A stretch of DNA of 53,843 bases, taken from contig DATKGN010000002.1 of the NCBI GenBank assembly GCA_035510735.1, positions 69,275 through 123,117 of the forward strand, given 5' to 3'. Source of the stretch: Patescibacteria group bacterium. Its GTDB lineage: Bacteria; Patescibacteriota; Microgenomatia; UBA10105; UBA927. Under the pieces are notes generated by a model. The model was given only the letters and a program-made list of their open reading frames with translations. It made no database searches and was not told the DNA's origin. Shown piece after piece: positions 13,246-53,462 of the stretch; the first letter of the stretch is position 1, and each line of letters starts with the position of its first letter. Position numbers and translations under genes: made by a program.

Positions 13246-14253
13246 TTATTCTTGTTTTTTGTGATGGAATTTATTGTAGATTTCCTTAAGTTGAGGATTC
13301 GTTATGTGCGTGTAGATCTGGGTCGTCGATACATTTTTGTGTCCCAGCATCTCCTGAATCGCCCGAAGATCGGCCCCGCCGCTTAACAAATCTGTCGCGA
13401 AACTGTGCCGTAATCCGTGGGGCGTAATTTTCACCGGCAGACGGGCTTTCTTCACATATTTTTCAACCAACCGCTGCACACTCCGTGCGGTTAACCGCAT
13501 CGACTCATTGGCATTTTGTCCGTCATCCGGCTTCTTGCCCGCATACCGGATAAAAAGCGCCGGCGCATCATCTTCCCGGCTGTCGATGTACCGTTTGAGC
13601 CACTCGACTGCAGAATCGGATAAAAATACAACCCGGGCGCGCCGGCCCTTTCCGATCACACCGAATTCTTTCCGGTCGAAATTAATCGTGTCGCGGTTTA
13701 AACCCACAAGTTCAGACACCCGGAGACCTGTTGAGAACAATAATTCAAGAATCGCTTTGTCCCGTAAACCCTCTTTATCTGATAATTCCGGCATATTGAG
13801 GAGCCGGTCGACCTGGTCGCGTTCAAGAAATTTAATAGATCTGCTCTCGGCTTTCGGCAAATCTATTTTTTCCGGTGCAACAACCGCAATATCGCGTTTG
13901 AGAAGGTACTTCAGAAAACTCCTAAGCGCAATAAGATGATAATTCTGCGTAATGCGCTTCAAACTTATCCCGTGATCATCAACATAACGTGAAAGAAACA
14001 GGCGGTATTGCCGTATCGATTCGGATGAAATGTCGGAAACGTTCACAGTTTTTCCGGCAGAGCCGGATCTCACAGTTTTTCCGGCAGAGCCGGATCTCAC
14101 TTCGTTCGACACGCTAGGGGATTGGGGATAGTCTGAGAGAAAGATCAAAAACCGGTGTAAATAGTGCGCATAATTGCGGATCGTTAATTGCGAAACATTT
14201 CGTTCAATTTCGAGATATTCTAAGAAATCTTTGATAAGTGCAGAAAGATCCAT
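13246..14253 (-). CDS. tyrosine recombinase, XerC/XerD family
   Basis: C-terminal HGLRHSFATDLL...LGHKNVSTTQIYTH (R-H-R-Y catalytic region) and an N-terminal SAM-like core-binding domain. Confidence 0.85.
   Translation of the reverse strand: MDLSALIKDFLEYLEIERNVSQLTIRNYAHYLHRFLIFLSDYPQSPSVSNEVRSGSAGKTVRSGSAGKTVNVSDISSESIRQYRLFLSRYVDDHGISLKRITQNYHLIALRSFLKYLLKRDIAVVAPEKIDLPKAESRSIKFLERDQVDRLLNMPELSDKEGLRDKAILELLFSTGLRVSELVGLNRDTINFDRKEFGVIGKGRRARVVFLSDSAVEWLKRYIDSREDDAPALFIRYAGKKPDDGQNANESMRLTARSVQRLVEKYVKKARLPVKITPHGLRHSFATDLLSGGADLRAIQEMLGHKNVSTTQIYTHITNPQLKEIYNKFHHKKQE
14044..14100. repeat. perfect 2 x 27-bp tandem duplication inside the Xer gene
   Basis: cacagtttttccggcagagccggatct occurs twice head to tail, followed by a partial cac. 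It encodes VRSGSAGKT twice. Each unit carries the hairpin TCCGGCagaGCCGGA. Confidence 0.95.
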
Positions 14254-18133: not shown

Positions 18134-18232
18134 AGTAAAAGAAGCTTAAAGCTTAGCAAGACCAGAGTGTAGTAAAAATAAATACTAAACTCTAAGTTCT
18201 GCACTCTAAGCTCTCATATTCTACTTGCTCTC

Positions 18233-20124: not shown

Positions 20125-21558
20125 TTATCTATTGTAAAGCCAGCGCCTCCTGAGATCAAGAAACTGATTGCGTTTAATCGCATCGCGAATCTCCAAAACC
20201 AGCGCGTGCATAAAATGTATGTTGTGAATGGTCGCGAGACGATACCCCAATAACTCGCGAACATGGAAGAGGTGGTGAACATAGGCTTTCGTAAATGTCC
20301 GGCACGTATAGCATGTGCAGGACACATCAACAGCGCGCACATCTGCTGCATTTACCGCTTTTGTAATATCATATGTGAATGTCGGCGATACCTCCGGTCG
20401 GACCAAAAGCCAGCCCATACGGGCGAGGCGGGTCGGTTGCACACAGTCAAATGTATCTATTCCTGCCGCGACAAGCGCGAAAATGTCATCGACCTCCCCT
20501 ACTCCCAATAGGTGACGAGGCTTGTCGTTAGGGAGAAGCGGCACGACCCAGTTCATTGCAGACTCCATCTCTTTTTTACTTTCCCCGACGGAAACACCGC
20601 CGATGGCAAACCCGTCAAAATCCATACGGGATATAAATCTCGCCGACTTTTTCCGGAGATCTTCGTAAACGCTTCCTTGAACTGAACCGTACAAAGCCTG
20701 ATATGGACTTCCTTTGTCATCCCGGGCTTGACCCGGGATCCATGTTATCTTCTCTAGATTCCGGCTCGGGGGCCGGAATGACAACTTGCGGTGCGCCTTC
20801 AAACTCCTTACGGCCCAAGCATGTGTCCGATCCAAAGAAGCCTGTGCTTTCTCATGTGTGACGGGGTACGGCGTACAATCGTCAAATGCGATATGGATGT
20901 CGGCGCCCAAATCCCATTGCCAACCCATGGAGGACTCCGGTGTGAAGATATGTTTGGATCCGTCCCAATGGGACCGGAATTCAACGCCATCGTCGGAAAT
21001 CTTAACTAATTGCGGCTTTTTGCTTTCCGGTTCCGTATCTTTGTCGCCTGAGGTCGGCATGCTTGTTTCTGCGTATCCGCCAACGCTTAGACTATTGCGG
21101 GTGATCCTCCTTCGCCTACGGCTTCGGAGGACAAGCGCGGCAGGCCTGTCCACCGTAGTCCAGTATCCTGGGACGGAGGAGGAACCCGCTGGGAGATCCT
21201 GCGTGACGACGGTACTCGAAAAAGTATGCCTCCCCGGCGCCGTTTTCGCGAGTGAAAACACCTGGAATCCGCCGCTGTCCGTGATTAAGGGTCTGTCCCA
21301 ATGCATAAAATTATGGAGGCCCCCCATTTTTTTGATGACCTCTATCCCCGGCCTGAGATACATGTGATAGGTATTGACGAAATACAAATGAGTTCCTAAA
21401 TCTTTTACTTCTTCGGGGGTGAGCGATTTAACCGATGCCTGCGTGCCGCACGGAACAAACGCCGGGGTTTCAATATCACCGTGAGGCGTATGAATTACTC
21501 CGAGTCTGGCGCCCGATTCTTTGCTTTCAAAAGTGGATTCAAAGGAAAAAGGCTTCAT
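20125..21558 (-). CDS. tgt: queuine tRNA-ribosyltransferase carrying two in-frame insertions
   Basis: ITDSGGFQVFSL, LLGVGEVDD, zinc site CTCYTCRTFTKAYVHHL. At 477 aa it is much longer than the E. coli enzyme because of inserts at about aa 105-183 and 259-282. Confidence 0.9.
   Translation of the reverse strand: MKPFSFESTFESKESGARLGVIHTPHGDIETPAFVPCGTQASVKSLTPEEVKDLGTHLYFVNTYHMYLRPGIEVIKKMGGLHNFMHWDRPLITDSGGFQVFSLAKTAPGRHTFSSTVVTQDLPAGSSSVPGYWTTVDRPAALVLRSRRRRRITRNSLSVGGYAETSMPTSGDKDTEPESKKPQLVKISDDGVEFRSHWDGSKHIFTPESSMGWQWDLGADIHIAFDDCTPYPVTHEKAQASLDRTHAWAVRSLKAHRKLSFRPPSRNLEKITWIPGQARDDKGSPYQALYGSVQGSVYEDLRKKSARFISRMDFDGFAIGGVSVGESKKEMESAMNWVVPLLPNDKPRHLLGVGEVDDIFALVAAGIDTFDCVQPTRLARMGWLLVRPEVSPTFTYDITKAVNAADVRAVDVSCTCYTCRTFTKAYVHHLFHVRELLGYRLATIHNIHFMHALVLEIRDAIKRNQFLDLRRRWLYNR
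20715..20783. repeat. 69-bp palindromic element (TGTCAT...ATGACA family) in frame within tgt
   Basis: TGTCATCCCGGGCTTGACCCGGGATCCATGTTATCTTCTCTAGATTCCGGCTCGGGGGCCGGAATGACA. It forms two 8-bp hairpins and has inverted termini. 69 nt equals 23 codons, encoding SFRPPSRNLEKITWIPGQARDD. Confidence 0.8.
21105..21135. repeat. TTCGC-loop-GCTTC palindromic element (family 1) inside the large tgt insertion
   Basis: TCCTCC TTCGC CTACG GCTTC GGAGGA CAAG. Confidence 0.75.
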
Positions 21559-30392: not shown

Positions 30393-31736
30393 TCACGCTG
30401 CCTTGGCGGCCTGTTGCGGATGCTCCACCCCATAAAACCGGATGCGGTCGCCGCGGAAGATAAGATCAATTTCCCCTAACGGACCATTCCGGTGCTTGGA
30501 GATCCTTAGCTTTGTCGGAATCTGTTCGCCCCATTGCATCTGGTCCGTGTCCTCCCGATACAGAAACATAACAACGTCAGCATCCTGTTCAATAGATCCG
30601 GATTCCCGGAGATCGGAAAGCTCCGGCACTTTACTGCCACGGGATTCAACCGCACGCGACAGCTGCGAACACGCCAGTACCGGAACCCGGAGTTCGCGGG
30701 CTAAGTTTTTAAAATTCTGCGAAATGATCGAAACTTCCTGTACGCGATTGTCGTAATGGCGGCCGGAATCCGCAAGCTGTAAATAGTCGATGATGATAAG
30801 ACGTACTCCCTGTTCAACCTGGAGACGTCGGGCTTTGGTGCGCATTTCGATAATATTGATACCGGGCGTGTCGTCAATATAAATAGGCGCCTCAGCAAGC
30901 TCCCCCATCGCTTCGGACAGTTTCGTAAAATCATCATCAGACAATTTTCCTGTTTTCAATTTCCACGCATCAATGTCCGCCTGAGAAACAAGCAAACGGT
31001 CGACCAGCTCCTCTTTACTCATTTCAAGAGAGAAGATCCCGACAGGGATTTTCATCTTGACCGCCGCATATTGGGCGATATTGAGGATCATCGCGGTTTT
31101 ACCGGTTCCCGGACGGGCAGCCAGAATAATAAGGTTGGAATCCTGCATACCTGCGAGGCGGAAGTCGAGATCAGAAAATCCTGTTGGTACGCCCCGCAAA
31201 CCCCCTGCTCGTTTATGAAGCTCATCAAGGCGGTCAAACGATGAGGCCAGCGCATCTTTAATCGGGATAAAATCACGCTTCGTCGCTTCCTGCGATATGG
31301 CAAATATCTGCCGCTCTGCATCATCCACAATGGAAGCGGCGTTCCCCTCGTCTTTGAATGCCAGTTCAGTAATTTTGGCCCCGACATCGATAAGTTTCCG
31401 CTTCGTATAACTCTGCTGGATGATATGACCGTACCGCTCTGCATGCGCACTCGTCGGCACCACATTCAATAACTCAGAAAGATAGGATGCGCCGCCTGCG
31501 GCTTTGAGCGTTCCGTCTTGCTTGAGTTGTGCTGCAACCGATACCGCATCAATGGGTTCATGCGCCTCATAGAGCGTCATCATTGCGGCAAAAATATTCC
31601 CATGTGATTCTTTGTAAAAGAAATCGGGCCTTAAGAATTCGGCAACATCGACCATCGCATCTTTATCAAGAAGAATGGCGCCCAGGACCGACTGCTCGGC
31701 AACTTCATCGTGCGGAGGAATTTTGGGGTTCATCAT
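30393..31736 (-). CDS. dnaB: replicative DNA helicase
   Basis: PPHDEVAEQSVLGAILLD, Walker A ARPGTGKT, IIIDYLQL, SQLSRAVE. Confidence 0.93.
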   Translation of the reverse strand: MMNPKIPPHDEVAEQSVLGAILLDKDAMVDVAEFLRPDFFYKESHGNIFAAMMTLYEAHEPIDAVSVAAQLKQDGTLKAAGGASYLSELLNVVPTSAHAERYGHIIQQSYTKRKLIDVGAKITELAFKDEGNAASIVDDAERQIFAISQEATKRDFIPIKDALASSFDRLDELHKRAGGLRGVPTGFSDLDFRLAGMQDSNLIILAARPGTGKTAMILNIAQYAAVKMKIPVGIFSLEMSKEELVDRLLVSQADIDAWKLKTGKLSDDDFTKLSEAMGELAEAPIYIDDTPGINIIEMRTKARRLQVEQGVRLIIIDYLQLADSGRHYDNRVQEVSIISQNFKNLARELRVPVLACSQLSRAVESRGSKVPELSDLRESGSIEQDADVVMFLYREDTDQMQWGEQIPTKLRISKHRNGPLGEIDLIFRGDRIRFYGVEHPQQAAKAA

Positions 31737-31746
31737 AAATATATCT

Positions 31747-31826
31747 TGTCATCGCGAGTCGAGTCTTCGAGATGTGGCGATCGATTTTTAAGGGGATTGC
31801 CGCGTCACTCCGAGCTCGCAATGACA
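31747..31826. repeat. 80-bp palindromic element with TGTCAT...ATGACA termini (family 2), intergenic
   Basis: TGTCATCGCGAG...CTCGCAATGACA (arms 11/12 complementary), with a nested GTGGCGATC/GATTGCCGC pairing. Confidence 0.75.
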
Positions 31827-31829
31827 GGT

Positions 31830-32477
31830 TTACTCCAATACAACGACCTGCATTTCGGCAGGTAATTTATCTTTGGTTATAGATAACTTCGGCTGGGGAA
31901 CGATTCCCTCTTTCCCGATTTCCTTCATGAATACGGATAGCGGAGCCAATACGTCTCCCAACTTCGGGTTCAATCCTTCAGTTTTATAGTGCATCGGGAT
32001 CACGATTGACGGCTCTATATCACGAATAATCTGCACTGCACGTGCCGCGTCAATCGTATAAAAACCACCGACCGGCACTAAAAGAATGTTGACGCCGTCC
32101 AATTCATCAACTTGCTCTGAGCTTAACGTATGACCCAAGTCTCCGAGATGAACGATGCTTAATCCGTCAATTTCTATCCGATAAATCGTATTTTTCCCGC
32201 GCACTGCACCCTTCTGGTCATCATGAAACACGGACATACCGACGACGCCGACTCCTTTGATCTCATATTCACCGGGACCATTCACAACAAACGGTGATCC
32301 CTCAACTTCCGATACGGCATTATGGTCTTTATGATCATGGGAAACCGTCACGATGTCCGCTTCCGTGTGCTTGGGAAATTTAAGTCCGACCGCCCCCGGA
32401 TCAAACGGATCAATTACAACGGTTGCCGACTTTCCCCGCAGGCGAAATGATGACTGACCGAAATAGGTAATATCCAT
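31830..32477 (-). CDS. MBL-fold metal-dependent hydrolase (UPF0173-like)
   Basis: MDITYFGQSSFRLRGK...VVIDPF...VSHDHKDH. Confidence 0.8.
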   Translation of the reverse strand: MDITYFGQSSFRLRGKSATVVIDPFDPGAVGLKFPKHTEADIVTVSHDHKDHNAVSEVEGSPFVVNGPGEYEIKGVGVVGMSVFHDDQKGAVRGKNTIYRIEIDGLSIVHLGDLGHTLSSEQVDELDGVNILLVPVGGFYTIDAARAVQIIRDIEPSIVIPMHYKTEGLNPKLGDVLAPLSVFMKEIGKEGIVPQPKLSITKDKLPAEMQVVVLE

Positions 32478-33901: not shown

Positions 33902-33919
33902 ATATTAACGTGTTACCAT
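33902..33919. promoter_or_regulatory. operator-like site O3 directly upstream of the YerC-like gene
   Basis: ATATTAACGTGTTACCAT shares its first 14 nt with O2 (34399-34416). Confidence 0.5.
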
Positions 33920-33925
33920 GTAAAT

Positions 33926-34318
33926 ATGAAAAAATTCCGTATGGAGCAATTCGCAGAGACTCCCTCCTCGTATCCAAGCCTCCAAATGCAGGAACTTTTT
34001 CGTGCGGTTATAACCCTAAGTTCCGTAAAGGACGCATCGGACTTTTTCCGAGATTTACTGACGATGGCAGAACTCAAAGAATTCGCGAACCGTTGGCAGA
34101 TGGTGAAAATGCTTTACCAAGGCCACTCATATGCCGATATAGCCGAAAAGCTAAAAACGTCAACCGCCACGGTCACACGGGTCGCCTACTGGCTCCATAG
34201 TGGCATGGGTGGATATAAATCCGCCGCTGACCGGATGTTTGGGAAAAAATTCAAAGATACGATATCCAAAAAACCATTCAAACTCCGCGGCAAATATACA
34301 TTTCTTCAAAATCACTAA
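33926..34318 (+). CDS. TrpR-related YerC/YecD-family DNA-binding protein
   Basis: FFRDLLTMAELKEFANRWQMVKMLYQGHSYADIAEKLKTSTATVTRV matches the YerC/YecD pattern. Confidence 0.75.
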   Translation: MKKFRMEQFAETPSSYPSLQMQELFRAVITLSSVKDASDFFRDLLTMAELKEFANRWQMVKMLYQGHSYADIAEKLKTSTATVTRVAYWLHSGMGGYKSAADRMFGKKFKDTISKKPFKLRGKYTFLQNH

Positions 34319-34363: not shown

Positions 34364-34400
34364 TTGACAGTATCATATTAACATGTTAATATGATAATAT
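34364..34400 (+). promoter_or_regulatory. sigma70-like promoter TTGACA-17-TAATAT (plus alternative TGaTAATAT extended -10)
   Basis: gcTTGACAgtatcatattaacatgtTAATATgataatat. Confidence 0.6.
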
Positions 34401-34416
34401 ATTAACGTGTTAATAC
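34371..34416. promoter_or_regulatory. two adjacent palindromic operators (O1, O2) overlapping the promoter
   Basis: O1 is a 26-bp perfect palindrome TATCATATTAACATGTTAATATGATA (34371-34396). O2 is ATATTAACGTGTTAATAC (34399-34416). Their centres are 24 bp apart. Confidence 0.7.
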
Positions 34417-34424
34417 GTGAATAT

Positions 34425-34511: not shown

Positions 34512-34647
34512 ATCCCTTCGCGTGGCCGAGGCGAGAATGTGTTTAATCCTAATCTCTAACCCCTAATCACTAAGTTCTCATTCATTCCCCCCTTCACCAT
34601 TCGCAGGTTTTATTGGTCTGCGAAGTTAAAAAACGGTAAAAAAAATT

Positions 34648-37603: not shown

Positions 37604-37827
37604 GATGGTTCGTTGGCAAACAAGTTCATATTTGTGAGCTTACGAGCCGATCAATCCTCCTTACGTCGCTCTTTGAACTGCGCTACGAATAGCAGGTAAG
37701 GTGAGAAGAAAGACGAGGAGGATATCGATATTGGTGGCAGTCATTCAATCGGTAGGATGTCAGGCTGTGAACCTGAACATGCGGGATCGTCCCCCGCCAG
37801 CCACCCCAAAGAAAGGAGGTGATATAT

Positions 37828-38238
37828 ATGGGAGAAAAAAATAATATAATTATTGATCGACTAACTGGAAAACCGTTTGGATATCGGGATGATTCTGATG
37901 CGGGTATCGCAGGAGAATTGATGGGTTGGTCTATAAAAGACATAGAACAAAAAGCTTTGAGAATGGGCAAACAATTCAAACCAAATCCCGAAATAATCAA
38001 TCGTTTACAAACAGATTTAGACAGTGGAGCGATTGTTTTATTTGACGAAGTTGATGTTGCGAAGGCGTTCCAATATGGAATTGTAGCGCTTGAAGAGGTG
38101 CCAGATCTCTTTAATCTTGTTGGTATTAAAGGATTAAATGATGTGGGAATCATTCCACCTCAAATCGTCTCAGAGAGAATTGATCCAGCTAGAAAAGGAG
38201 CTCTTGTTTCGTGGTTACTCACGAACCAGAGTTGTTGA
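37828..38238 (+). CDS. hypothetical 136-aa protein between the T-box and hisS
   Basis: SD AAGGAGGTG lies 8 nt upstream of ATG 37828. No recognisable motif. Confidence 0.65.
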   Translation: MGEKNNIIIDRLTGKPFGYRDDSDAGIAGELMGWSIKDIEQKALRMGKQFKPNPEIINRLQTDLDSGAIVLFDEVDVAKAFQYGIVALEEVPDLFNLVGIKGLNDVGIIPPQIVSERIDPARKGALVSWLLTNQSC

Positions 38239-38321
38239 GTTCCTCCTCCGCCGAAGTACAAGGCGGAGGGAGAAAACAATAAAAACACTTGTTCTCATTA
38301 CAAATTGTTGCTACGATGAAA

Positions 38322-41068: not shown

Positions 41069-41114
41069 TTAGAGATTAGAGTTTAGTTAATTATATACTT
41101 TTACTAATCTCTAA
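41069..41114 (+). terminator. AT-rich 11-bp hairpin after rpmE
   Basis: TTAGAGATTAG...CTAATCTCTAA with a 24-nt loop and no clean U-tract. Confidence 0.3.
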
Positions 41115-41140
41115 ACTCTAAACCCTAAACTCTAATTCAT

Positions 41141-41269
41141 ATGAACCCCGATATTGCTATTATGGAATTCCGTCCCGGCCCCGGTGGAGAGGAAGACTTG
41201 ACTGGTTACTTAACGAGCGGATTCCTATTCGCGAGTTTAGGAACCATCAATGCGACATGGGCAAATTAA
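41141..41269 (+). pseudogene. decayed duplicate of the 5' end of the release-factor gene
   Basis: The 42-aa ORF MNPDIAIMEFRPGPGGEED... shares a perfect 31-bp repeat (gaattccgtcccggccccggtggagaggaag, 41165-41195) with the real gene (41298-41328), then diverges. Confidence 0.6.
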
Positions 41270-41273
41270 TTTT

Positions 41274-41972
41274 ATGAATACAGATGTAGCTATATTAGAA
41301 TTCCGTCCCGGCCCCGGTGGAGAGGAAGCTAGAATTTGGGCCAACGATCTTATGCGGATGTACACGCGGTATGCGAGTATATTGGGATGGAAAGTCGAGC
41401 AGTTAAGTGATACGGCAATTCGGATTAAAGGCACGGAAGCCTTCACCAAATTACAATACGAGGCAGGCACCCACAGGGTCCAGCGCGTCCCCACAACCGA
41501 GCGCCAGGGGCGTATTCACACGTCAACGGCCACAGTTGCAGTACTTCCTGAAATCCCTGAAACAGAGGTCTATATACGGCCAGAGGATATCATATGGGAA
41601 TTCTACCGGAGCGGGGGTAAAGGCGGCCAAAACGTTAATAAAGTAAGCTCAGCCGCACGAATCCGTCACAAAGCGACGGGAATTGTCGTCTCCTGCCAGA
41701 CGGAGCGCGATCAATACCAGAACCGCCAGATGGCCCTTTCGATGCTCCGCGCAAAACTCTGGGAGCTCAATGAACTCAAAGCAGCAGCAGCTCTTGGCGC
41801 AGCACGTAGCGTTATCGGCCGGGGCATGCGGGCCGAAAAAATCCGGACGTACAACTTCCCCCAGAACCGCGTCACCGACCACCGGATCAACAAATCATGG
41901 CATAATCTCGAAGATATTATTGAAGGAAAAATGCAAAAAGTCACCGACGCGATGATCACATCTCAGGCATAA
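41274..41972 (+). CDS. prfA: class I peptide chain release factor, RF1-type, lacking N-terminal domain 1
   Basis: EFRPGPGGEEARIWANDLMRMY (start of domain 2), RVPTTERQGRIHTS (PxT), SGGKGGQNVNK (GGQ), RTYNFPQNRVTDHR. Only 232 aa, whereas E. coli RF1 (which I aligned from memory) has roughly 100 more residues N-terminal to this point. Confidence 0.8.
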   Translation: MNTDVAILEFRPGPGGEEARIWANDLMRMYTRYASILGWKVEQLSDTAIRIKGTEAFTKLQYEAGTHRVQRVPTTERQGRIHTSTATVAVLPEIPETEVYIRPEDIIWEFYRSGGKGGQNVNKVSSAARIRHKATGIVVSCQTERDQYQNRQMALSMLRAKLWELNELKAAAALGAARSVIGRGMRAEKIRTYNFPQNRVTDHRINKSWHNLEDIIEGKMQKVTDAMITSQA

Positions 41973-46505: not shown

Positions 46506-47633
46506 TTACGTCCCGATTTTAAACTCTACCACATCCCCGTCCTGCATCACGTATTCTTTGCCCTCAAAACGGGCTTTGCCGGCCTCGCGGGCCTTCTTCC
46601 ATCCCCCTTCGCTAAAGCTTCGGGGGACAGGCCCACCTGCCGGATTAATAAAGTCGTTATAGTGGACTACCTCGGCCTTAATAAATTTCTTCTCAAAATC
46701 CGTGTGGATGGTGCCTGCAGCAGCTGGCGCCTTTATCCCCTTCTCAATCGTCCACGCGCGCGCTTCAATAGGACCGCACGTGAGAAATGAGATAAGGCCA
46801 AGTTCTTCGTATGCTTTTTGGATGAGTAAATCGAGACCTGACGATTCAACCCCCAATGATTTGAGATATTCCGCCTGCTCGACGGGCGCAAGTGCCGCTA
46901 GCTCCGACTCCATCTCGGCACAAATAAAGACAATGGGTCGTATATCAGTTAATTTGTCAATTTGTGAATTTGTTAATTGTTGCTCTGACACATTGCCGAT
47001 GTACATGATCGGTTTCATGGTTAAAAGCTGTAGATCACGAAGGAGCAACCGTTCTTCCGGATCAATAACGACCTCGCGGGCCAATTTCCCCCCGTCCATG
47101 AGCGGTTTTATCCGCTTGATGAGTTCCCATCGCTCTCTATCCTCTTTCGTGGCATTCATCTTCGGTTCGCCTTGTTTCGTGAGCGTTTGGAGGTCGGCAA
47201 GAATTAATTCCGTCTCGACCGTCACACGATCGCGGGCAGCGTCGGGCGTCCCATCGACGTGAACGATATCAGGATTCTCAAAAAACCGTAAGACGTGGCA
47301 AATAATGTTGACTTCGCGGATGTGGGAGAGGAATTTGTTGCCCAGCCCCTGCCCTTCCGACGCACCTTTGACGAGTCCCGCAATATCCACAAATTCGACG
47401 ACAGCCGGCACCAACGGCGGCAGCTTGTCCATTTTTTCCTCAACTTTCGTGATTTCGGCGAGCTTCGCAAGCCTATCATCCGGCACCGGCACGACGCCGA
47501 TATTTGGCTCGATCGTGGCAAACGGATAGTTGGCGGCTAATGCTACCTGCTTTTTCAAAAGTGCATTAAACAGCGTCGACTTTCCAACGTTGGCAAGACC
47601 TACAATACCGACTTTCAGACCAGAACTTGACAT
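46506..47633 (-). CDS. ychF: redox-regulated ATPase YchF
   Basis: GIVGLANVGKSTLFNAL, NYPFATIEPN, C-terminal TGS-like MQDGDVVEF. Contains a ~12-aa insert, PAGGPVPRSFSEG. Confidence 0.93.
   Translation of the reverse strand: MSSSGLKVGIVGLANVGKSTLFNALLKKQVALAANYPFATIEPNIGVVPVPDDRLAKLAEITKVEEKMDKLPPLVPAVVEFVDIAGLVKGASEGQGLGNKFLSHIREVNIICHVLRFFENPDIVHVDGTPDAARDRVTVETELILADLQTLTKQGEPKMNATKEDRERWELIKRIKPLMDGGKLAREVVIDPEERLLLRDLQLLTMKPIMYIGNVSEQQLTNSQIDKLTDIRPIVFICAEMESELAALAPVEQAEYLKSLGVESSGLDLLIQKAYEELGLISFLTCGPIEARAWTIEKGIKAPAAAGTIHTDFEKKFIKAEVVHYNDFINPAGGPVPRSFSEGGWKKAREAGKARFEGKEYVMQDGDVVEFKIGT
46602..46631. repeat. family-1 palindromic element in frame within ychF
   Basis: TCCCCC TTCGC TAAA GCTTC GGGGGA CAGG. 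Confidence 0.75.
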
Positions 47634-49179
47634 AATTAGCTTCAGTTACGGGAATATGCCCGCTAACATGAACCTCTTTTTCACTTGCGGTGATATCGTT
47701 TACTACATTTAATATCACTCGCCGTCTTTTTGTATAATCTGCTACTTCGAGCTTTTCTTTCGCTCTTTTGCAGTATGATTCTATCTGTTCATCGGTAGGT
47801 TTGGCAAATGGTAAAAGCCTTTGCTCTTTTGCAAACTCAGCAAGTCGCTGTTCTAGTGTCGTTCGTTTTAACCGAATATCCTGCACATACGAGGTTAGCT
47901 GAGTAAGAGTAATAACCTGTTTCCCATAGGCTTTTGTATATCGTTCTTCTTCTATCGCTAACTTGGATAAATCACGCTGAATAGACACGAGATCACTCGA
48001 ATGATCCACGACCTTCATTTTTTTATCGAAATGTCGATCAGCATGCCATTTTAACAGCCGAGGCGTTACCATTGTCTTTTCTAACCTATCCCAGACCAAA
48101 TAATCAGCTATACGGGCATTTATTCCCTTTTGAAGGCAGGAAGGCGGCATCGGGTATCTGTTCACACGTCCGGAACAGCGATAATAGAGGTGCTTTCCGT
48201 GCTGTGGCCCTTCTCCGGTCCGTGTAGAACCGCACGTACAGTGAATAAGATTACTGAGTAAGTACTCATTCTTTTTATTCCGAACACACCGATCATAATT
48301 AATGCGGAGTTGCTTTTGTGTTCTATCGAACAATTCTTTATCTATAATAGAAGCACAATCAATAAATACCCAATCCTCAACGGGTTTATTTTTCCGGCTG
48401 CTCTTTACTATCCGTTTATATTTCTCCGTACTTTTTGGGTGCTCCGGAATAATACCTACCGTTTTATTAAAATGTGCCTTCCCGTAGTACGTTTCGTTTC
48501 TCAGAAGTGTGGTAAGAGTACTGTTATTCCACACGCCTCGCAAGCTCTTGCGTGGTGCTATATTCTTCTCCTGTAGTCGTTTTACTACCTTTCGAATTGT
48601 CATCCCTTCGTCCGCAATCCAATGGAAAATATCTCGTACAACTCGTGCTTCTACTGGTATCGGCTCGAAGTATCCGTGTTTCTCCCCTTGTTTAGGGATA
48701 TAAGCGTAGCCATACGGTGCATGCGAGGTAACTACATGCCCTTCCCGTGCTTTCCGGAGCTTCCCTAGTCTAAATCTTTCCGCTATACGGGCTCGCTCAT
48801 ACTCTGCGAACAATCCCTTCACGCCATAGAGGAGCTTATCGCCCTCGTCTTTCACCGGAGGCGTGGTAACGAACAATACTTTTATTCCACGAGATTCTAA
48901 TTCATCACGCACTAATTCCTGATGTGCGTACTTTCGGGACAATCTATCGGGATCATAGACCACTACGGCCTCCCAGAGCCGTTTAGGGGCATCTAAGCGA
49001 AGCTGATCGAGCGCAGGACGGGCTAAAATAGTGCCGCTCCATCCATCGTCCCTATATTCCTGTATAAGCGTATGATTATTGGCCTTCACGAAGTCTTTAA
49101 TGGCCATTATCTGTGTCCCTATGGTTTCCTCTACCTCTTGGCGTTGAGATGACACACGAGCGTAAAATGCTACTCTCAT
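47566..49179 (-). CDS. large serine recombinase (integrase)
   Basis: MRVAFYARVSSQRQ resolvase-type catalytic N-terminus, a recombinase domain, zinc-ribbon region CTCGSTRTG...YYRCSG, and a coiled-coil. The last 68 nt overlap the ychF 5' end in another frame. Confidence 0.9.
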   Translation of the reverse strand: MRVAFYARVSSQRQEVEETIGTQIMAIKDFVKANNHTLIQEYRDDGWSGTILARPALDQLRLDAPKRLWEAVVVYDPDRLSRKYAHQELVRDELESRGIKVLFVTTPPVKDEGDKLLYGVKGLFAEYERARIAERFRLGKLRKAREGHVVTSHAPYGYAYIPKQGEKHGYFEPIPVEARVVRDIFHWIADEGMTIRKVVKRLQEKNIAPRKSLRGVWNNSTLTTLLRNETYYGKAHFNKTVGIIPEHPKSTEKYKRIVKSSRKNKPVEDWVFIDCASIIDKELFDRTQKQLRINYDRCVRNKKNEYLLSNLIHCTCGSTRTGEGPQHGKHLYYRCSGRVNRYPMPPSCLQKGINARIADYLVWDRLEKTMVTPRLLKWHADRHFDKKMKVVDHSSDLVSIQRDLSKLAIEEERYTKAYGKQVITLTQLTSYVQDIRLKRTTLEQRLAEFAKEQRLLPFAKPTDEQIESYCKRAKEKLEVADYTKRRRVILNVVNDITASEKEVHVSGHIPVTEANYVKFWSESRYCRSCQRWKVDAV

Positions 49180-49349
49180 ACTTTTACCTTTCGGCTTTCC
49201 ATAAACTTATCAAAATCAACTTTTTTGACCCGATATTCTTTCCCAAGTGAGTACGCAGGAAGTAACCCCTTGGCTATCCATCGGCGCACTGTAATGCCCT
49301 TAATCATAAGTAGCTTCGCTATTTGCCGTGTTGTGTAGTATTCGTACAT
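49176..49349 (-). CDS. excisionase-family helix-turn-helix protein (57 aa)
   Basis: MYEYYTTRQIAKLLMIKGITVRRWIAKGLLPAYSLGKEYRVKKVDFDKFMESRKVKV. Its TGA overlaps the recombinase ATG (ATGA). Below the track cutoff. Confidence 0.6.
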   Translation of the reverse strand: MYEYYTTRQIAKLLMIKGITVRRWIAKGLLPAYSLGKEYRVKKVDFDKFMESRKVKV

Positions 49350-49373
49350 AGCTTTACTATACAGAACTTTATA

Positions 49374-49937
49374 TTACATTGCAACTACTAATTTCTTTTT
49401 AGGTTTTCTTCGTTTATTATGATGATGCTTCAACTCATCGGTAAAGTACGCCGCCGGACTCTTTATAGTCATCCAACCCTCTACGTGAGCCTTTGTCATC
49501 TGATGAATGACGCCGTTTATTGACTTGGGCGTGTAGTGTTGGGCGATCCATAACCAGTGGCTATCCTTCGTAACGCTTGAAAGAAATATTACTTGTAATA
49601 GTGAGGCTATTTTCTTTGGACTCGTTTTATATGTGTATGTCGTTAGCTCTGCGATTGCTTGTTTTTTCTTTTGTGTTTCCTCTGCGTTTTCCTGCCGTTT
49701 CCCTATATCATTAACACTCCCATTAACACTAGCACTTCTTTCACTTGTCCCCTTTAAGGATAGGATTGTTCTACCATCAATATCAATGGGATCAACGGGT
49801 GTGGATTCTGCGATGGACTCACATATCAGTAATTGGTCTAGGAGCGGTAAATGTGAATCCGGATCGTAGGTGCCACCGAGTTGTTCTATCCGGCGGATTG
49901 CCTCATCTCTGGATAGTTGCGGGGTGTCCATATTCAT
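49374..49937 (-). CDS. hypothetical protein (element-borne)
   Basis: 187-aa ORF with a basic C-terminus. Confidence 0.55.
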   Translation of the reverse strand: MNMDTPQLSRDEAIRRIEQLGGTYDPDSHLPLLDQLLICESIAESTPVDPIDIDGRTILSLKGTSERSASVNGSVNDIGKRQENAEETQKKKQAIAELTTYTYKTSPKKIASLLQVIFLSSVTKDSHWLWIAQHYTPKSINGVIHQMTKAHVEGWMTIKSPAAYFTDELKHHHNKRRKPKKKLVVAM

Positions 49938-50079
49938 CTTTCTTGTCTAAACGCTCCAAATCCTCAGCGTCTAGCTCATCAAATATCACGTCATACGCAT
50001 CATCTAGCCTTTTCTGACGCTCCGCTTGCTCATAATCCACAAACGAATATTTTATCCGTAGTTGTTTCTTAGGTTTCAT
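49903..50079 (-). CDS. possible 58-aa acidic protein
   Basis: MKPKKQLRIKYSFVDYEQAERQKRLDDAYDVIFDELDAEDLERLDKKDEYGHPATIQR. Overlaps both neighbouring ORFs. Confidence 0.25.
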   Translation of the reverse strand: MKPKKQLRIKYSFVDYEQAERQKRLDDAYDVIFDELDAEDLERLDKKDEYGHPATIQR

Positions 50080-50311
50080 ACTGCCTCGTTTTTATTTCCG
50101 AGATCAGCATCTCTCGATTAGAAAAAAGCTCTCTCGCCGGAGCCTGTGCGTTATTCAGATAATCTTTGGAAAGTTGTTTACACAATGAAGGGTTTGTGAG
50201 AATAAAAAGAAACTTACCAGGATTGGCTTCTTTAACTTCCGCTAGTGATACCTCTTTATTCGTTAAGAGGAATGAGCAGAGCAGTATGTCATAAGTCGTG
50301 AAGTTTTCCAT
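50069..50311 (-). CDS. small phage-type protein, DUF5659-like
   Basis: TYDILLCSFLLTNKEVSLAEVKEANPGKFLFILTN resembles the DUF5659 pattern as I recall it. Weak. Confidence 0.45.
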   Translation of the reverse strand: MENFTTYDILLCSFLLTNKEVSLAEVKEANPGKFLFILTNPSLCKQLSKDYLNNAQAPARELFSNREMLISEIKTRQYET

Positions 50312-50377
50312 ATTTTTTCAATCTTATGGAAATAGTAAGTGTTCTTTCGAATAACCGCACTGAAGTTTGAGGTGTTG

Positions 50378-51109
50378 CTAAATGTCAGCGTTTAGAAGTT
50401 TCTTGTAACGGGAGACTGCTTGCTCGATCTTATTCGGATCAATATAATCATTTGGATCTTTAGGCAAATGTTTCTTTTCCCAATCCTCTACAATTCGTTT
50501 GTATATGCCTCTGCCACTTGTCTTTTCTTTTTTATACATCCAGTACCATTCTCTATCTCTTTTTATCTCGCTTTTTACGTCTGATATTTTTAAATAATCT
50601 TTATATTGCTTAAAACGTTCCTCTAATTGCTCAATTTTTGTTTCTGGATAAACAATAAACGCCACCTCATTACTGTCGAGTGAAATATCAACTCCCCTTT
50701 TAAAAGCGTGATAATAAATAGGATCGTTATCGAAGTGCTCATCACAAACATAACCACTTAAAATAGCAAAACGTATAACATTCACAAATGCTTGGCTTTT
50801 TCTGTATTTATGTAGTAGATAATCAATCCCTTCAGGGGTTAATGAATCAAACGACCGCCAATCTTTTAAACTCTTATCTGTTAATAGTTCAAAATGGATA
50901 CTTAAACCGTGCACATCCTCCTGTTTTAACACCTTAAGCTCGTTATACCTAATTAGTTCATTAATGCCCAAGTGTCTTCTGATGTCCTTAACCTCATGTA
51001 AAAAATCATCTCTATCAACTAATAATGCTATCGCCTCGTACGTCCATTTAGATTTTACCTTAATTACAATTGGACCATTTATACTAGGAGTATCTAATAT
51101 AGTTTTCAT
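50378..51109 (-). CDS. hypothetical protein (element-borne)
   Basis: 243-aa ORF, Lys/Asp/Glu-rich, no motif recognised. Confidence 0.6.
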   Translation of the reverse strand: MKTILDTPSINGPIVIKVKSKWTYEAIALLVDRDDFLHEVKDIRRHLGINELIRYNELKVLKQEDVHGLSIHFELLTDKSLKDWRSFDSLTPEGIDYLLHKYRKSQAFVNVIRFAILSGYVCDEHFDNDPIYYHAFKRGVDISLDSNEVAFIVYPETKIEQLEERFKQYKDYLKISDVKSEIKRDREWYWMYKKEKTSGRGIYKRIVEDWEKKHLPKDPNDYIDPNKIEQAVSRYKKLLNADI

Positions 51110-51225
51110 ATCAATTTGCCTGCAATTATACTACGTTTACAATTCTAATTTGCCGTAATAGTGTATTTCTGCTACTCTACAAATAATAATTTAATGGCCT
51201 AAACCTTTATGGCATGGCCTAGAAA

Positions 51226-51266
51226 CCTTCACAGAAGTAAGCTCTTCGTCAGAGCATCTGTGAAGG
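51226..51266 (+). other. strong compound hairpin in the divergent intergenic region
   Basis: CCTTCACAGA-agtaa-GCTCT-tcgtc-AGAGC-a-TCTGTGAAGG (10 + 5 bp). Confidence 0.7.
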
Positions 51267-51354
51267 TCATATGCCGAAAGGTGTATGGGTGACGCAAGTC
51301 ATCGCTGGCGGGGAGCTTTTTTGTGTTCTAGCAAAAATTTATATTGAGATTAAA

Positions 51355-51984
51355 ATGAACATGAAGATTTTTAAATGGATATTATTTTTACCAGCAGCTT
51401 TTTGTATTCAAGCGATTGTCAGCATACTATTCGGCTTAATATTTTATGGAATTGGATTGAAAAATCAAGTATTGTTTGATAGCATAAATGCTTTTGTAGG
51501 CGCCTTTTTATTTGTTTTTTTTGCTGGATATTTAGCCCCATCTAAAAAGACTAAGGTTGCGGAAATTATTTTTTGGATCGAAATTTCTTTAGCAATTCTA
51601 AATTTGGTTCTTGGATTTTTGGGAGTCTATACTTTTGTTAAAATGGAAACACCTAATAGTATTATTCCCGTCTTACAAGTTCTTGGAGCCCTGTATGCAG
51701 TAACATTAGTTCCTATTCTTACTACTCAAGGTGCTAGGCTTGATCAATTATGGATAGCAATTGCCGGTCTCGGTGGATTGATTATGTTTATTGGAGGAGC
51801 TATTTCAATTCTGGGCATAATAATAGGACTTTTTAGTAACCATTGGATGACACTTTCTGTAGGCGCTATTGTTCTTGGGATGGGGATAATAACTTGGCTT
51901 TACCCAGATATTCATCTTTTCCTAAGGGTAAGAAGAGCAAATAAGATTATTAAGAAAATGGAAAAGGGAGATTCTTTTAATTAG
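51355..51984 (+). CDS. polytopic membrane protein (element cargo)
   Basis: Track ORF 51271..51984 trimmed to MNMKIFKWILFLPAAF, because ATG 51271 lies 4 nt after the hairpin. About 6 TM segments. Confidence 0.55.
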   Translation: MNMKIFKWILFLPAAFCIQAIVSILFGLIFYGIGLKNQVLFDSINAFVGAFLFVFFAGYLAPSKKTKVAEIIFWIEISLAILNLVLGFLGVYTFVKMETPNSIIPVLQVLGALYAVTLVPILTTQGARLDQLWIAIAGLGGLIMFIGGAISILGIIIGLFSNHWMTLSVGAIVLGMGIITWLYPDIHLFLRVRRANKIIKKMEKGDSFN

Positions 51985-51985
51985 C

Positions 51986-52402
51986 ATGACCATAAACGAT
52001 TTAGAAAAATTAAACTCTCCATATATAGTTGAAACTGAAAAAGATTTAATTGTTTTTAGAAAAGTGGCTAGTGATGCAATTACAAATTCCGTTTTCCTTC
52101 TTATAGCAAGTATAGTTGTGATATTTTTAGGTTATTTAAATTATTGGCTGGGCGCATCACTGTCGGTAGCTCTAATGATTTTATTTATATTAGATATAAT
52201 CACGGGATTAACAGCTGTAATAACTAATATTGTATTTCTATATCCTCTTCTCCTAATCATTACAAGATTTACAAAAAATAAGGATAGTCTGAGTGGAAGT
52301 TTGGGTTACAAGTTGGGAGCTTGTCTGGTAAGAGCATTAGAATCTGGGGTTAATGTATACTTATTTGTGCTAATTCTTAATGCATTAAAAAGTAAATTTT
52401 AA
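51986..52402 (+). CDS. membrane protein (element cargo)
   Basis: 138 aa with 3-4 TM segments. Starts 1 nt after the previous stop. Confidence 0.6.
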   Translation: MTINDLEKLNSPYIVETEKDLIVFRKVASDAITNSVFLLIASIVVIFLGYLNYWLGASLSVALMILFILDIITGLTAVITNIVFLYPLLLIITRFTKNKDSLSGSLGYKLGACLVRALESGVNVYLFVLILNALKSKF

Positions 52403-52404
52403 AT

Positions 52405-53190: not shown

Positions 53191-53462
53191 TTACGATAAC
53201 CTAGACATTTCCTACAAGTAATCCTTTTACCTAACGGGTCTTGATATAATACTCCCCTTCTTCTATGACACTCAGGGCACTCAAACCATAGCCTAAACCC
53301 TCCGAAACGGGTTTTTGACTGAGTTAGATTTACAGTATGTCCATTTACGCTTACCTGAGCCTCTATGATGGCTTTCTTAAGGCTATTTCGTGCGTAACGT
53401 ACATAATCATCAATTCGAATCTTTTGATAGTTTTCCGTCACGGGGAGATTACCTCTAATCAT
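53187..53462 (-). CDS. zinc-ribbon protein
   Basis: CPECHRRRGVLY...CRKCLG. ATGA overlap with the upstream ORF. Confidence 0.55.
   Translation of the reverse strand: MIRGNLPVTENYQKIRIDDYVRYARNSLKKAIIEAQVSVNGHTVNLTQSKTRFGGFRLWFECPECHRRRGVLYQDPLGKRITCRKCLGYRN

Follow-up and report, generated by a model that had tools for sequence, protein, structure and literature searches.

In-Frame Palindromic Repeats at Two Loops of the tgt Gene of a Gottesmanbacteria (CPR/Patescibacteria) Genome

The tgt Gene and Its Product

The window (the whole stretch of DNA that was analysed, 53,843 nt) carries a gene for queuine/tRNA-guanine transglycosylase, tgt, which has two inserts in its reading frame. The window's own tgt and its Tgt product are called Q here, and Q is the reference in all of the comparisons below. 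The features are as follows.

20125..21558, minus strand: tgt (queuine/tRNA-guanine transglycosylase) coding sequence, the host gene; an intact ORF of 477 aa
20715..20742, plus strand: REP unit A of insert 2; tag TGTC, stem ATCCCGGG, loop CTTGA, stem CCCGGGAT, tail CCA
20743..20754, no strand: spacer of insert 2, 12 nt; unrelated among Q, L128, L076 and L001
20755..20783, minus strand: REP unit B of insert 2; tag TGTC, stem ATTCCGGC, loop CCCCGA, stem GCCGGAAT, tail CTA
21010..21041, minus strand: remainder of a native variable loop (…KDTEPESKKPQ), outside the element; placed by the loops of orthologues and by hairpin pairing, which stops at ~21045
21042..21242, minus strand: insert 1 proper, a 201-nt (67-codon) long-hairpin, MITE-like palindromic element; placed by the ends of its relatives and by folding
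21105..21184, minus strand: variable core of insert 1 at the apex of the hairpin; differs from the cores in L002, L203 and L205
31747..31826, no strand: a second TGTC...GACA palindrome, 80 nt, in the spacer that separates dnaB from an MBL-fold gene; of another subfamily, TGTCATYGCGAG...CTCGCAATGACA

Q matches the Pfam TGT family with an E-value of 5.8e-132, and Z. mobilis TGT structures align to it with an E-value of 1e-95. The Z. mobilis alignment is used here in place of the E. coli comparison of a first-pass annotation of this DNA. That annotation described tgt as carrying two in-frame palindromic insertions that leave the catalytic and zinc motifs intact, and both statements hold. The ORF is uninterrupted, both elements can be delimited, the catalytic Asp residues are present (TDSGG, AFDDC and GVGEVDD), and the Zn motif CxCxxC...H is kept, both in alignment with Z. 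mobilis TGT. The two inserts make Q about 100 aa longer than minimal orthologues. The gene order PseudoU_synth, Na/H exchanger+TrkA_N, TGT, LytR_C is conserved in L001 and in L204, the latter being the closest relative. The dN/dS ratio between Q and L204 is 0.05, and by this measure tgt is under strong purifying selection.

Repeats can misassemble, and the G+C content of the inserts (58–59%) is above that of tgt (51%) and of the window (45%), as might be seen in an assembly chimera or a decaying pseudogene. The inserts are not an assembly artefact of the window, since an independent JGI contig of 1221 bp (L206) is 99.9% identical to the Q locus and spans both of them. Homologous elements also occur at the same sites in orthologues from other assemblies. 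Together with the intact ORF, the conserved catalytic and Zn residues and the low dN/dS, these observations leave a chimera or a pseudogene with next to no credence.

In Z. mobilis TGT numbering, the site of insert 1 is between S113 and L114, and that of insert 2 is within the 186–196 loop. The core of an AlphaFold model of Q has pLDDT >90; residues 109–178 and 263–280 have pLDDT <50 and no secondary structure, so both inserts are predicted to be disordered loops. The earlier expectation was of surface loops; both inserts map to loops of Z. mobilis TGT, and a surface position is predicted from the low pLDDT. The lengths of both inserts are multiples of three and contain no stop codons; therefore, they would be read through, adding ~67 and ~23 disordered residues. 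Given the intact ORF, the inserts are presumably expressed and translated, and the predicted peptides include ITWIPGQAR and NSLSVGGYAETSMPTSGDK. Since insert 1 starts only ~13 residues past the strand carrying the catalytic Asp, it may affect Tgt activity.

Insert 2 and the CGTC-Tagged REPs

Insert 2 is exactly 69 nt (20715–20783), bounded by TGTCAT and ATGACA, and has two perfect 8-bp hairpins at 20719–20726/20732–20739 and 20758–20765/20772–20779. In length, termini and number of hairpins, it is as first described. Per shuffled window, 0.12 occurrences of TGTCAT-N30-60-ATGACA are expected. The mRNA strand of the insert folds with z = -4.8, and 0/200 shuffles fold as well. The terminal TGTC tags are at 20715–20718 on the plus strand and at 20783–20780 on the minus strand, and the right half after the spacer reads TAG-ATTCCGGC-TCGGGG-GCCGGAAT-GACA in plus-strand order. 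With the tags outermost and two stems that differ, this is a head–head heterodimer.

In the survey of Di Nocera, De Gregorio & Rocco 2013 (BMC Genomics 14:522; PMC3733652), the CGTC REP is defined by a terminal CGTC (with TGTC and CCTC variants), an 8–9 bp stem starting with AT, a 4–5 nt loop and a CCA tail. These REPs are described there as mostly head–head dimers, often heterodimers, dispersed in multiple copies through the host genome. Dimers within ORFs encode 20–30 aa, and the class is one without a known dedicated transposase in that account. Both stems of insert 2 (ATCCCGGG/CCCGGGAT and ATTCCGGC/GCCGGAAT) start with AT and are perfect over 8 bp, in agreement with the stem of that definition. 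Unit A has a 5-nt loop, within the published range, and the consensus CCA tail, whereas unit B has a 6-nt loop, one nt over, and a CTA tail with one mismatch. By these features of its sequence, together with the TGTC tags, the heterodimeric arrangement and the position within an ORF, insert 2 is a CGTC/TGTC-tagged REP head–head dimer in the sense of Di Nocera 2013 (PMC3733652). The 8-bp stem and 5-nt loop suggest class CGTC-2. The superfamily as delimited in the same survey includes Neisseria dRS3 and, from Rickettsia conorii, RPE-4 (CGTC-4) and RPE-6 (CGTC-1). The parallel with Rickettsia palindromic elements drawn in the first-pass annotation is therefore sound for insert 2, by way of that assignment.

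A known structured RNA was ruled out. Rfam gave only a sub-threshold match to FtrB (Francisella sRNA B, RF02748), which is explained by common REP architecture. The FtrB consensus is itself a GUCAUUCCCGCG...CGCGGGAAUC ... GAUCCCCGUGUCAAGCACGAGGAU REP dimer, and insert 2 aligns to the whole model, but with 28.6 bits (E 0.007–0.04) against a gathering threshold of 66. Insert 2 also lies within a coding sequence and is not a member.

No further copy of insert 1, of insert 2 or of the 27-nt motif TCCTCCTTCGCCTACGGCTTCGGAGGA (see below) was found in the window by exact search, by search with ≤3 mismatches or by blastn-short. A hairpin at 38232–38282 was ruled out as a related copy, having only a 12-mer in common, at chance level. 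The sole other TGTC element in the window is the intergenic palindrome at 31747..31826, which folds end to end with z = -2.8. A Pfam scan of the 50 window ORFs found no Y1/RAYT transposase (no Y1_Tnp). The ORFs include a Xer-like integrase and a serine recombinase. An intein was ruled out for either insert, both being too short.

Copies of the REP units are abundant outside the window. Unit A, searched as ATCCCGGG-N5-CCCGGGATGACA, is matched in at least 120 stretches across many phyla, including Proteobacteria, Bacteroidota, Fibrobacter and six CPR groups. The CCA tail is present in 86/133 (65%) of the genomic copies, and 62/133 of the matches (47%) are paired with an inverted, tagged unit, the median of the inner distances being 32 nt. 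The unit is multi-copy in other genomes, such as Ramlibacter RYN_591 and Bacteroidetes RYN_276. It is identical over 28/28 nt in Q, L001, L076 and L128, and unit B is 93% identical to the matching unit in L128 and L076. In L076, which is also from Gottesmanbacteria, a near-identical dimer lies in frame in another gene with an ORF of >700 aa. REPs are also in frame in UvrC, PPDK and APH-family ORFs; high-G+C REP loci (e.g., L099, L024, L030 and L111), which have long spurious open frames, were left out of these intragenic cases. Although synonymous sites between Q and L001/L002 are saturated, the right REP unit (28 nt, or 33 nt with flanks) is 100% identical.

Insert 1 and Its Relatives

At the position of insert 1, Q has 79 extra residues (aa 105–183) flanked by GGFQVFSLA and LVKISDDGVEF, where minimal orthologues have 0–5 residues. 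The position and the 79 residues are as first reported, but the 237 bp then assigned to the insertion comprise an element of 201 bp (21042–21242) and native loop. The limits were set from comparison with relatives (L002, L203 and L205) and from end-to-end hairpin folding, and the element proper encodes roughly aa 106–172 (TAPGRH...MPTSGD). Orthologues without a large insert have a 12–17 aa loop ending in ...DEEKP(Q/S)LVKI, and in the alignment, TEPESKKPQ is the counterpart of that native variable loop.

As DNA, insert 1 folds into a single imperfect end-to-end hairpin (dG -47 kcal/mol, z = -3.5), and the members of its family have z-scores from -3.5 to -5.0; as RNA, insert 1 has z = -4.8. The ends are imperfect inverted sequences of ~40 nt that pair end to end. 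At the apex is a core with arms TCCTCCTYCG/CGRAGGAGGA and inner stems CTACGG/CCGTAG and GGACA/TGTCC. The “family-1” motif of the first-pass annotation is present within the core as the 27-nt TCCTCCTTCGCCTACGGCTTCGGAGGA; it runs from 21105 to 21131 rather than to 21135, and no second window copy exists at ≤3 mismatches. The core is wholly different from its counterparts in L002, L203 and the two L205 copies, and the framework around it, AGCGGGT...TCACCCGCAA, is conserved in all of these. The idea that the middle of insert 1 in Q and P0005 is the same DNA read in a different frame was ruled out, since the cores are different DNA sequences within a conserved framework.

The insert-1 family was recovered in just a handful of sequences. 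With nhmmer, members were found in the tgt genes of both L002 and L203, in an unrelated ORF at L205:1-232 and in intergenic DNA at L205:5946-6142 (E 2.8e-9). The carriers P0005 and P0017 are 67–69% identical to Q. An exhaustive profile search of representative proteins found P0121 (E 3e-12), whose contig also holds the intergenic copy. P0124, from the same ~180-aa (FrvX-like) protein family as P0121, has the element at the matching position, and most members of that family are without it. In all, relatives of insert 1 lie in two further tgt orthologues, in one unrelated gene of two genomes and at a single intergenic site. Two weak matches of that search, P0122 and P0123, were discarded as unrelated tandem-repeat proteins. 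A word-indexed protein search with a profile from three insert-1 peptides returned nothing at E ≤ 10, which is a limit of the method because the same profile scores P0005 at E 5e-34 and P0017 at E 1e-31 locally. A scan of metagenome contigs for CATGCCGACCTCAGGCGACA, a 20-mer taken from the right-hand end of insert 1, gave 0 matches, which says little because that collection is without even the L002 contig. Copies beyond the window, on which the first-pass annotation had made its repeat reading depend, are thus found for both inserts: the REP unit in its many stretches, and the insert-1 family in P0121, P0124 and intergenic L205.

The codon position of insert 1 is identical in Q, L002 and L203. 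The 73-nt right end is 84% identical between Q and L002, with the terminal 45 nt nearly invariant. Synonymous sites between Q and L001/L002 are saturated (pS ~0.8).

Insertion Hot Spots in tgt

Among 120 homologues, both insert sites are hypervariable, and many orthologues are without any insert. In other orthologues, unrelated palindromic families are found at the same two sites. Site 2 is occupied in L128 by the insert-2 dimer in reverse orientation, in L129 by a single REP, and in L131/P0077 by a different TGTC family, of the same subfamily as the intergenic element of the window. At site 1, L124 has a CGTC dimer. In P0001, the closest relative (89% identical over 366 core columns), neither site carries the element that Q has there. 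The alignment of orthologues proposed in the first-pass annotation as a check on its reading thus brings out no conserved lineage-specific domains. Judged from these sequences, both sites are insertion hot spots that have taken up different element families in different orthologues. No target-site duplication was seen flanking six independent insertions, and neither Q insert has a direct repeat beside it.

Natural variation of both loops is seen even in orthologues that lack palindromes, and the ADENLDP-type insert of P0001 folds no better than shuffled sequence (z = +0.6). Taken alone, this would fit lineage-specific loops or domains, or hairpins made in situ by template switching, with no relation to mobile repeats. 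That account is contradicted for both inserts: identical 28-nt REP units recur in unrelated genes and phyla, the insert-1 family exists outside tgt, and the inserts of the closest relative are different. We find it scarcely believable.

A somewhat stronger case can be made for homologous recombination or gene conversion of tgt fragments among related CPR genomes, the hot spots then being a record of allele shuffling. Q, L002 and L203 carry insert 1 at exactly one codon position, and its termini have diverged far less between Q and L002 than the synonymous sites of the gene, which are saturated; patchwise recombination could produce this too. P0001 has the left-end motif of insert 1, TCGCCGGGRAGG, followed by another family. 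However, the same element families are in unrelated genes and intergenic DNA (L076, L205 and P0124), and both orientations occur at tgt site 2, which is impossible by allelic exchange. Recombination could supplement transposition but not substitute for it, and as the whole explanation we consider it unlikely.

It is also conceivable that the inserts are useful and have been exapted, either to make extra contacts with tRNA or a partner (through the Arg-rich LRSRRRRRITR or the REP loop) or as mRNA hairpins regulating tgt. Tgt is a tRNA-binding protein, the basic insert 1 lies in sequence terms on the catalytic side of the barrel, and the REP stems are perfectly conserved. The Francisella sRNA FtrB shares the REP-dimer architecture, so stable RNAs can arise from dimers of this kind. 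Against a function of this kind, the encoded peptide is not conserved among orthologues; families, frames and orientations differ; and the Arg-rich run is found only in the variable core of Q. Insert-free orthologues are numerous, disorder is predicted for both inserts, and the conservation is at the level of the DNA palindrome and not of the protein. We rate exaptation as quite improbable, a little below recombination.

The explanation that we favour, and hold to be very probable, is that two unrelated palindromic mobile repeats have inserted in tgt of Gottesmanbacteria and are read through as loops. The elements have the anatomy of palindromic repeats and belong to dispersed families, insertions have occurred independently at both sites, and the host gene is under purifying selection. 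The elements would move as single-stranded hairpins by means of a trans-acting enzyme encoded elsewhere. The survivors of selection would be only those insertions that keep the frame and fall in structurally permissive loops, and a resident palindrome may also promote further insertion or replacement. Once in place, the inserts would be translated and roughly neutral.

Relation to Known Elements and Significance

In-frame palindromic repeats are best known from Rickettsia. The palindromic elements of that genus (RPE-1 and others) are reportedly the subject of Ogata et al. 2000 in Science, Ogata et al. 2002 in Genome Res and Claverie & Ogata 2003. They are ~100–150 bp, lie in frame in conserved genes of a bacterium with a small genome, in loops, and are compatible with protein function. 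Insert 1 is like RPE-1 in being a long palindrome in frame in a conserved gene, at 201 bp and ~67 aa, and this likeness is one of behaviour, the link by family assignment to RPE-4 and RPE-6 being that of insert 2. Unlike the RPEs, the insert-1 family combines a conserved framework with an exchangeable apex. The RPE host is an obligate intracellular alphaproteobacterium, whereas the host here is a free-living or episymbiotic CPR bacterium.

The Neisseria Correia elements are bacterial MITEs that overlap ORFs. Coxiella QMITE1 and QMITE2 are further such MITEs (Wachter et al. 2018; PMC5896051). Insert 1 resembles both in being small, non-autonomous, structured, dispersed and sometimes translated within host proteins, but neither a target-site duplication nor a parent IS or promoter was identified for it.

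Insert 2 is comparable to the REPINs in being an inverted doublet of REP hairpins able to form one larger hairpin. REPINs and GTAG REPs are said to be mobilised by RAYT (TnpA-REP) transposases, in work attributed to Nunvar 2010, Bertels & Rainey 2011 and Ton-Hoang 2012. The likeness extends to a presumed movement as single-stranded DNA and to the lack of a target-site duplication. The differences are the tag, which is TGTC rather than GTAG, and the lack of a RAYT or Y1 transposase among the 50 window ORFs.

The closest precedent is within the CGTC REPs themselves. The 2013 survey reports in-frame palindromic repeats in several species besides Rickettsia, and REPs at about the same recB site in two Xanthomonas species (PMC3733652). 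The CPR/Gottesmanbacteria host and tgt are outside the survey, and the reoccupation of two loops by several families in both orientations far exceeds what it reports. Literature searches turned up no account of REPs or MITEs within CPR proteins. The present case adds the Candidate Phyla Radiation to the range of the phenomenon, with two loops that gather such elements time after time. It suggests repeated insertion and turnover of small mobile palindromes, at a handful of tolerant loops, as one source of the lineage-specific differences in length among CPR proteins. When metagenomic proteins are annotated or their structures predicted, peptides such as ...WIPGQARDDK, ...SFPRRRES...GNDK and ...SLRGA...RND are to be taken as derived from repeats and not as functional motifs.

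A more speculative extension, which we hold to be unlikely, is that both Tgt loops and the loop of the ~180-aa FrvX-like protein are true insertion targets. A resident hairpin or cruciform would serve there as a landing pad, at which elements would be inserted or swapped by a trans-acting enzyme recognising TGTC-tagged hairpins. If so, cassette exchange would be continually rewriting specific protein loops in tiny CPR genomes. The 25-nt REP unit common to co-occurring Comamonadaceae, Bacteroidota and others would then mean cross-phylum element traffic. The tgt hot spots provide a natural series of independent insertions usable for studying the movement of CGTC-type REPs, and this series spans several families, both orientations and one 89%-identical pair with different inserts.

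The tgt Gene and Its Product

The host gene and its two palindromic inserts are as follows.

20125–21558, minus strand: tgt, encoding a 477 aa queuine/tRNA-guanine transglycosylase
21042–21242: insert 1, element proper, 201 nt
21105–21131: TCCTCC...GGAGGA palindrome inside insert 1, 27 nt
20715–20783: insert 2, 69 nt, with TGTCAT/ATGACA ends and two perfect 8-bp hairpins

The protein matches Pfam TGT (E 5.8e-132) and the Z. mobilis TGT structures (E about 1e-95). Its top homologues belong to Candidatus Gottesmanbacteria and other Microgenomates (CPR), and relatives keep the gene order pseudouridine synthase, Na/H exchanger with TrkA_N, tgt and LytR_C protein. It exceeds the minimal orthologues (360–370 aa) by about 100 residues. 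The first-pass annotation held that the frame is kept and the catalytic and zinc motifs are intact, and this is borne out: the frame continues across both inserts, and an alignment of 36 sequences shows no variation in the catalytic aspartates, the substrate-binding motifs or the CxCxxC...H zinc site, none of which is missing. Since dN/dS against the closest relative (contig L204, encoding P0001) is 0.05 over 362 core codons, the gene is functional. An assembly artefact as the source of the inserts is ruled out by an independent JGI contig (L206), which is 99.9% identical over 1221 bp spanning both of them.

Insert 2 and the CGTC REPs

Insert 2 has exactly the extent, ends and hairpins first ascribed to it. 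The TGTCAT/ATGACA-bounded pattern is expected 0.12 times per shuffled window, and the mRNA-strand fold has z = −4.8. There are two units, 12 nt apart, with TGTC tags on the outer ends. On one strand, the unit reads TGTC tag, ATCCCGGG stem, CTTGA loop, CCCGGGAT stem and CCA tail; on the other, it reads TGTC tag, ATTCCGGC stem, CCCCGA loop, GCCGGAAT stem and CTA tail. Repetitive palindromic units (REPs) of the CGTC class are defined by the tetranucleotide CGTC, or frequently TGTC, as terminal tag, by 8–9 bp stems starting with AT, by 4–5 nt loops and by a 3-nt tail whose consensus is CCA (Di Nocera et al., PMC3733652). These REPs are mainly head–head dimers with the tags outside, are also found within genes, and are without an associated transposase (PMC3733652). 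Insert 2 agrees with all of the criteria save the 6-nt loop and the CTA tail, both in one unit, and reads as a CGTC/TGTC-tagged REP dimer. R. conorii RPE-6 and Neisseria dRS3 are CGTC-1, and RPE-4 is CGTC-4 (PMC3733652); intragenic CGTC REPs and RPEs are already established there and in the Rickettsia work it cites. The proposed parallel with in-frame Rickettsia palindromic elements is thus supported, insert 2 fitting the class that includes RPE-4 and RPE-6.

In an Rfam search, the minus strand of 20693–20799, containing insert 2, aligned to the whole model of the Francisella sRNA FtrB (RF02748) at 28.6 bits, below the gathering threshold of 66. The model consensus is itself a CGTC-type REP head–head dimer, and the likeness suggests that the FtrB family was derived from this repeat class.

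Scanning one genome per GTDB species with the pattern ATCCCGGG-N5-CCCGGGATGACA found the REP unit in at least 120 stretches, from Alpha- and Betaproteobacteria, Bacteroidota, Fibrobacter, Zixibacteria, Cloacimonadota and six CPR groups. Among the matches listed, several genomes have more than one copy; in the 133 of these with sufficient flank, the TCAAG loop is identical in 58%, the CCA tail is present in 65%, and an inverted tagged partner lies upstream in 47%, at a median inner distance of 32 nt. Gottesmanbacteria RIFCSPHIGHO2_01_FULL_46_14 (contig L076) has an insert-2 dimer in frame within an ORF of >700 codons, whose product resembles a membrane protein. The left and right units of this dimer are 93% and 100% identical to ours, and the spacer is unrelated. 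Copies are also in frame in UvrC-, PPDK- and APH-family ORFs. The UvrC-like ORF (L089:6987–7998, with GIY-YIG and UvrC RNase H domains) contains an in-frame CGTC REP dimer (…SSCHSRESGNPG…GSRVKPGMT…), echoing the report that repair genes are enriched in intragenic REPs (Di Nocera et al. 2013, PMC3733652). It has a second apparent insert (…SLRGVTRSGTTKQSRGIAA…), resembling the TGTCATTGCGAG-type (SLRGA..RND) family at the peptide level.

Insert 1 and Its Family

Between GGFQVFSLA and LVKISDDG, the protein has 79 residues, as against 0–5 in minimal orthologues. The insertion recognized in the first pass therefore exists, but only the 201 nt are the element proper; the remaining ~11 codons are native variable loop. 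The TCCTCC...GGAGGA motif it labelled family-1 is present, but it has no second copy in the window and constitutes no repeat family there. The label was probably prompted by 38232–38282, a terminator-like hairpin (TTCCTCCTCCGCC-N9-GGCGGAGGGAG) directly past the ORF at 37819–38238; the 12-mer it has in common with the insert 1 core is no more than chance would give (blastn E 0.59).

Insert 1 is found at one shared codon position in three tgt genes: that of the window, and those of contigs L002 (P0005) and L203 (P0017). The three elements have common ends (...GTCGCCGGGGAGGCRT.C.TTTTCGAG... and ...TTGGCGGAGACGCAGAAA...ATGCCGACCTCAGGCGACA) and a common inner stem (AGCGGGT...TCACCCGCAA), and differ in their central cores. 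Each folds into one imperfect end-to-end hairpin (DNA z-scores −3.5 to −5.0). Insert 1 is a long-hairpin repeat whose framework is conserved and whose apex varies.

When 1.84 billion representative proteins were searched exhaustively with a profile, one clear carrier outside Tgt emerged: P0121 (E 3e-12), annotated in a Gottesmanbacteria MAG as a partial "hypothetical protein". Copies on its contig are:

L205:1–232: insert-1 copy
L205:5946–6142: intergenic insert-1 copy (nhmmer E 2.8e-9), core different again

The P0121 family (roughly 180 aa) is widespread in Microgenomates, and most members carry no insert at all. At the position occupied in P0121, P0124 bears an insert-1-type element whose core is different, and other insertions are seen in P0125, P0127, P0129 and P0131. 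The insertion hot spot of this family (locus on the P0121 contig, L205:1–534) lies between ...GAREVAK.L and LVIVVDTT and is mostly empty; some family members are labelled "putative aminopeptidase FrvX". Because insert-1-type copies occur outside tgt (P0121, P0124 and the intergenic copy), the family is a dispersed one, of which only a handful of copies was recovered. It is probably undescribed. Full-text searches of the literature turned up nothing on REPs, MITEs or in-frame palindromes in CPR/Patescibacteria and no mention of tgt as a host.

Turnover at the Two Sites

Among 120 Tgt homologues, only three segments between core blocks ever exceed 6 residues. Segments of at least 20 residues occur at site 1 (the insert 1 loop) in 38 and at site 2 (the insert 2 loop) in 29; a minor third site is extended in 3. 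At the third site (aa 387–395), where our protein has no insert, Microgenomates P0073 has ~28 extra residues, and P0060 and P0116 have ~13 each.

The occupants of the two main sites are varied. At site 2, L128 has the insert-2 dimer in opposite orientation at the DNA level, L129 has one single REP unit, and L131 (P0077) has a TGTCATTGCGAG...CTCGCAATGACA element. L124 has a CGTC head–head dimer at site 1, and in L001/L123 and L204 both sites are occupied by other palindromic families. Of six ortholog tgt inserts put through folding, five fold better than shuffled sequence (z-scores of the inserts, −2.0 to −6.2), the exception being a decayed copy in L204. P0001 has 89% core identity to our protein (366 columns), yet has other elements at both sites. 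The remaining insert-1 carriers share only 67–69% identity with ours, which makes them no closer than orthologues lacking inserts. Against L001/L002, synonymous sites are saturated (pS about 0.8); despite this, the REP unit is identical over 28 nt, or 33 nt once the flanks are counted, and insert 1 has 84% identity over 73 nt at its right end, where the terminal 45 nt are nearly invariant. Taken together, these observations call for several insertions or replacements that took place independently, and they cannot be squared with a conserved lineage-specific domain; both sites are hot spots of rapid turnover. As multi-family insertion hot spots, they are unusually clear.

Besides insert 2, the only TGTC-tagged element in the window is an 80-nt intergenic palindrome (TGTCATCGCGAG...CTCGCAATGACA, 31747–31826), of the same subfamily as the L131 site 2 element. 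Its neighbours, both on the minus strand, are dnaB (30393–31736) and an MBL-fold gene (31830–32477).

Consequences for the Protein

An AlphaFold2 model from the 36-sequence alignment (pTM 0.78) has pLDDT >90 over most of the core. Residues 99–105, 109–178 and 263–280 have pLDDT <50 and no secondary structure. In the Z. mobilis TGT frame, S113 and L114 bracket insert 1, which comes soon after the Asp102/Tyr106 strand and loop and ahead of the small beta-sheet insertion, and insert 2 falls in the 186–196 loop, from the long helix to the next strand. From the intact frame, the unconserved peptides and the predicted disorder, we infer that the inserts are translated and neutral.

Possible Mechanism

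The repeat reading implied copies beyond the window, and these exist for both inserts, which are members of dispersed palindromic families that arrived repeatedly and independently at identical loops. Such elements might be mobilized in trans, as hairpin DNA, with selection sparing only insertions that keep the frame and lie in tolerant loops. Further insertion or apex replacement may be favoured by a palindrome already in place, as hinted by the swappable insert-1 core and a composite left end in P0001. No transposase, Y1/RAYT included, was found among the 50 ORFs of the window, two of which encode an Xer-like integrase and a large serine recombinase, and no target-site duplication is visible at the inserts. 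CGTC REPs in general have no known mobilizing enzyme.

Other Repeats and Loci

The Xer-like tyrosine recombinase gene (13246–14253) contains a perfect 27-nt tandem duplication (14043–14096, two copies of TCACAGTTTTTCCGGCAGAGCCGGATC), in frame, adding 9 aa and holding a small CCGGC...GCCGG hairpin. A 56-nt direct repeat (41140–41195 and 41273–41328, 86% identity) doubles the MN(P/T)D(I/V)AI(M/L)EFRPGPGGEE-coding segment at the 5′ end of a peptide-chain release factor gene (41250–41972), which has PCRF and RF-1 domains in only 240 aa. A CTAAxCTCTAA-rich 37-nt motif (18185–18221, 34549–34585 and 41104–41140) lies directly upstream of genes in two of three copies (34648; 41141/41250), possibly serving as a promoter or leader motif. 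AT-rich palindromes (ATATTAACRTGTTAATAT and variants) at 34371–34424 and 33902–33927, either side of a Trp-repressor-like gene (33926–34318), resemble operator sites. Finally, 47566–53843 may be an integrated mobile element, beginning with the large serine recombinase (47566–49179) and continuing with ORFs without Pfam matches to the window end.
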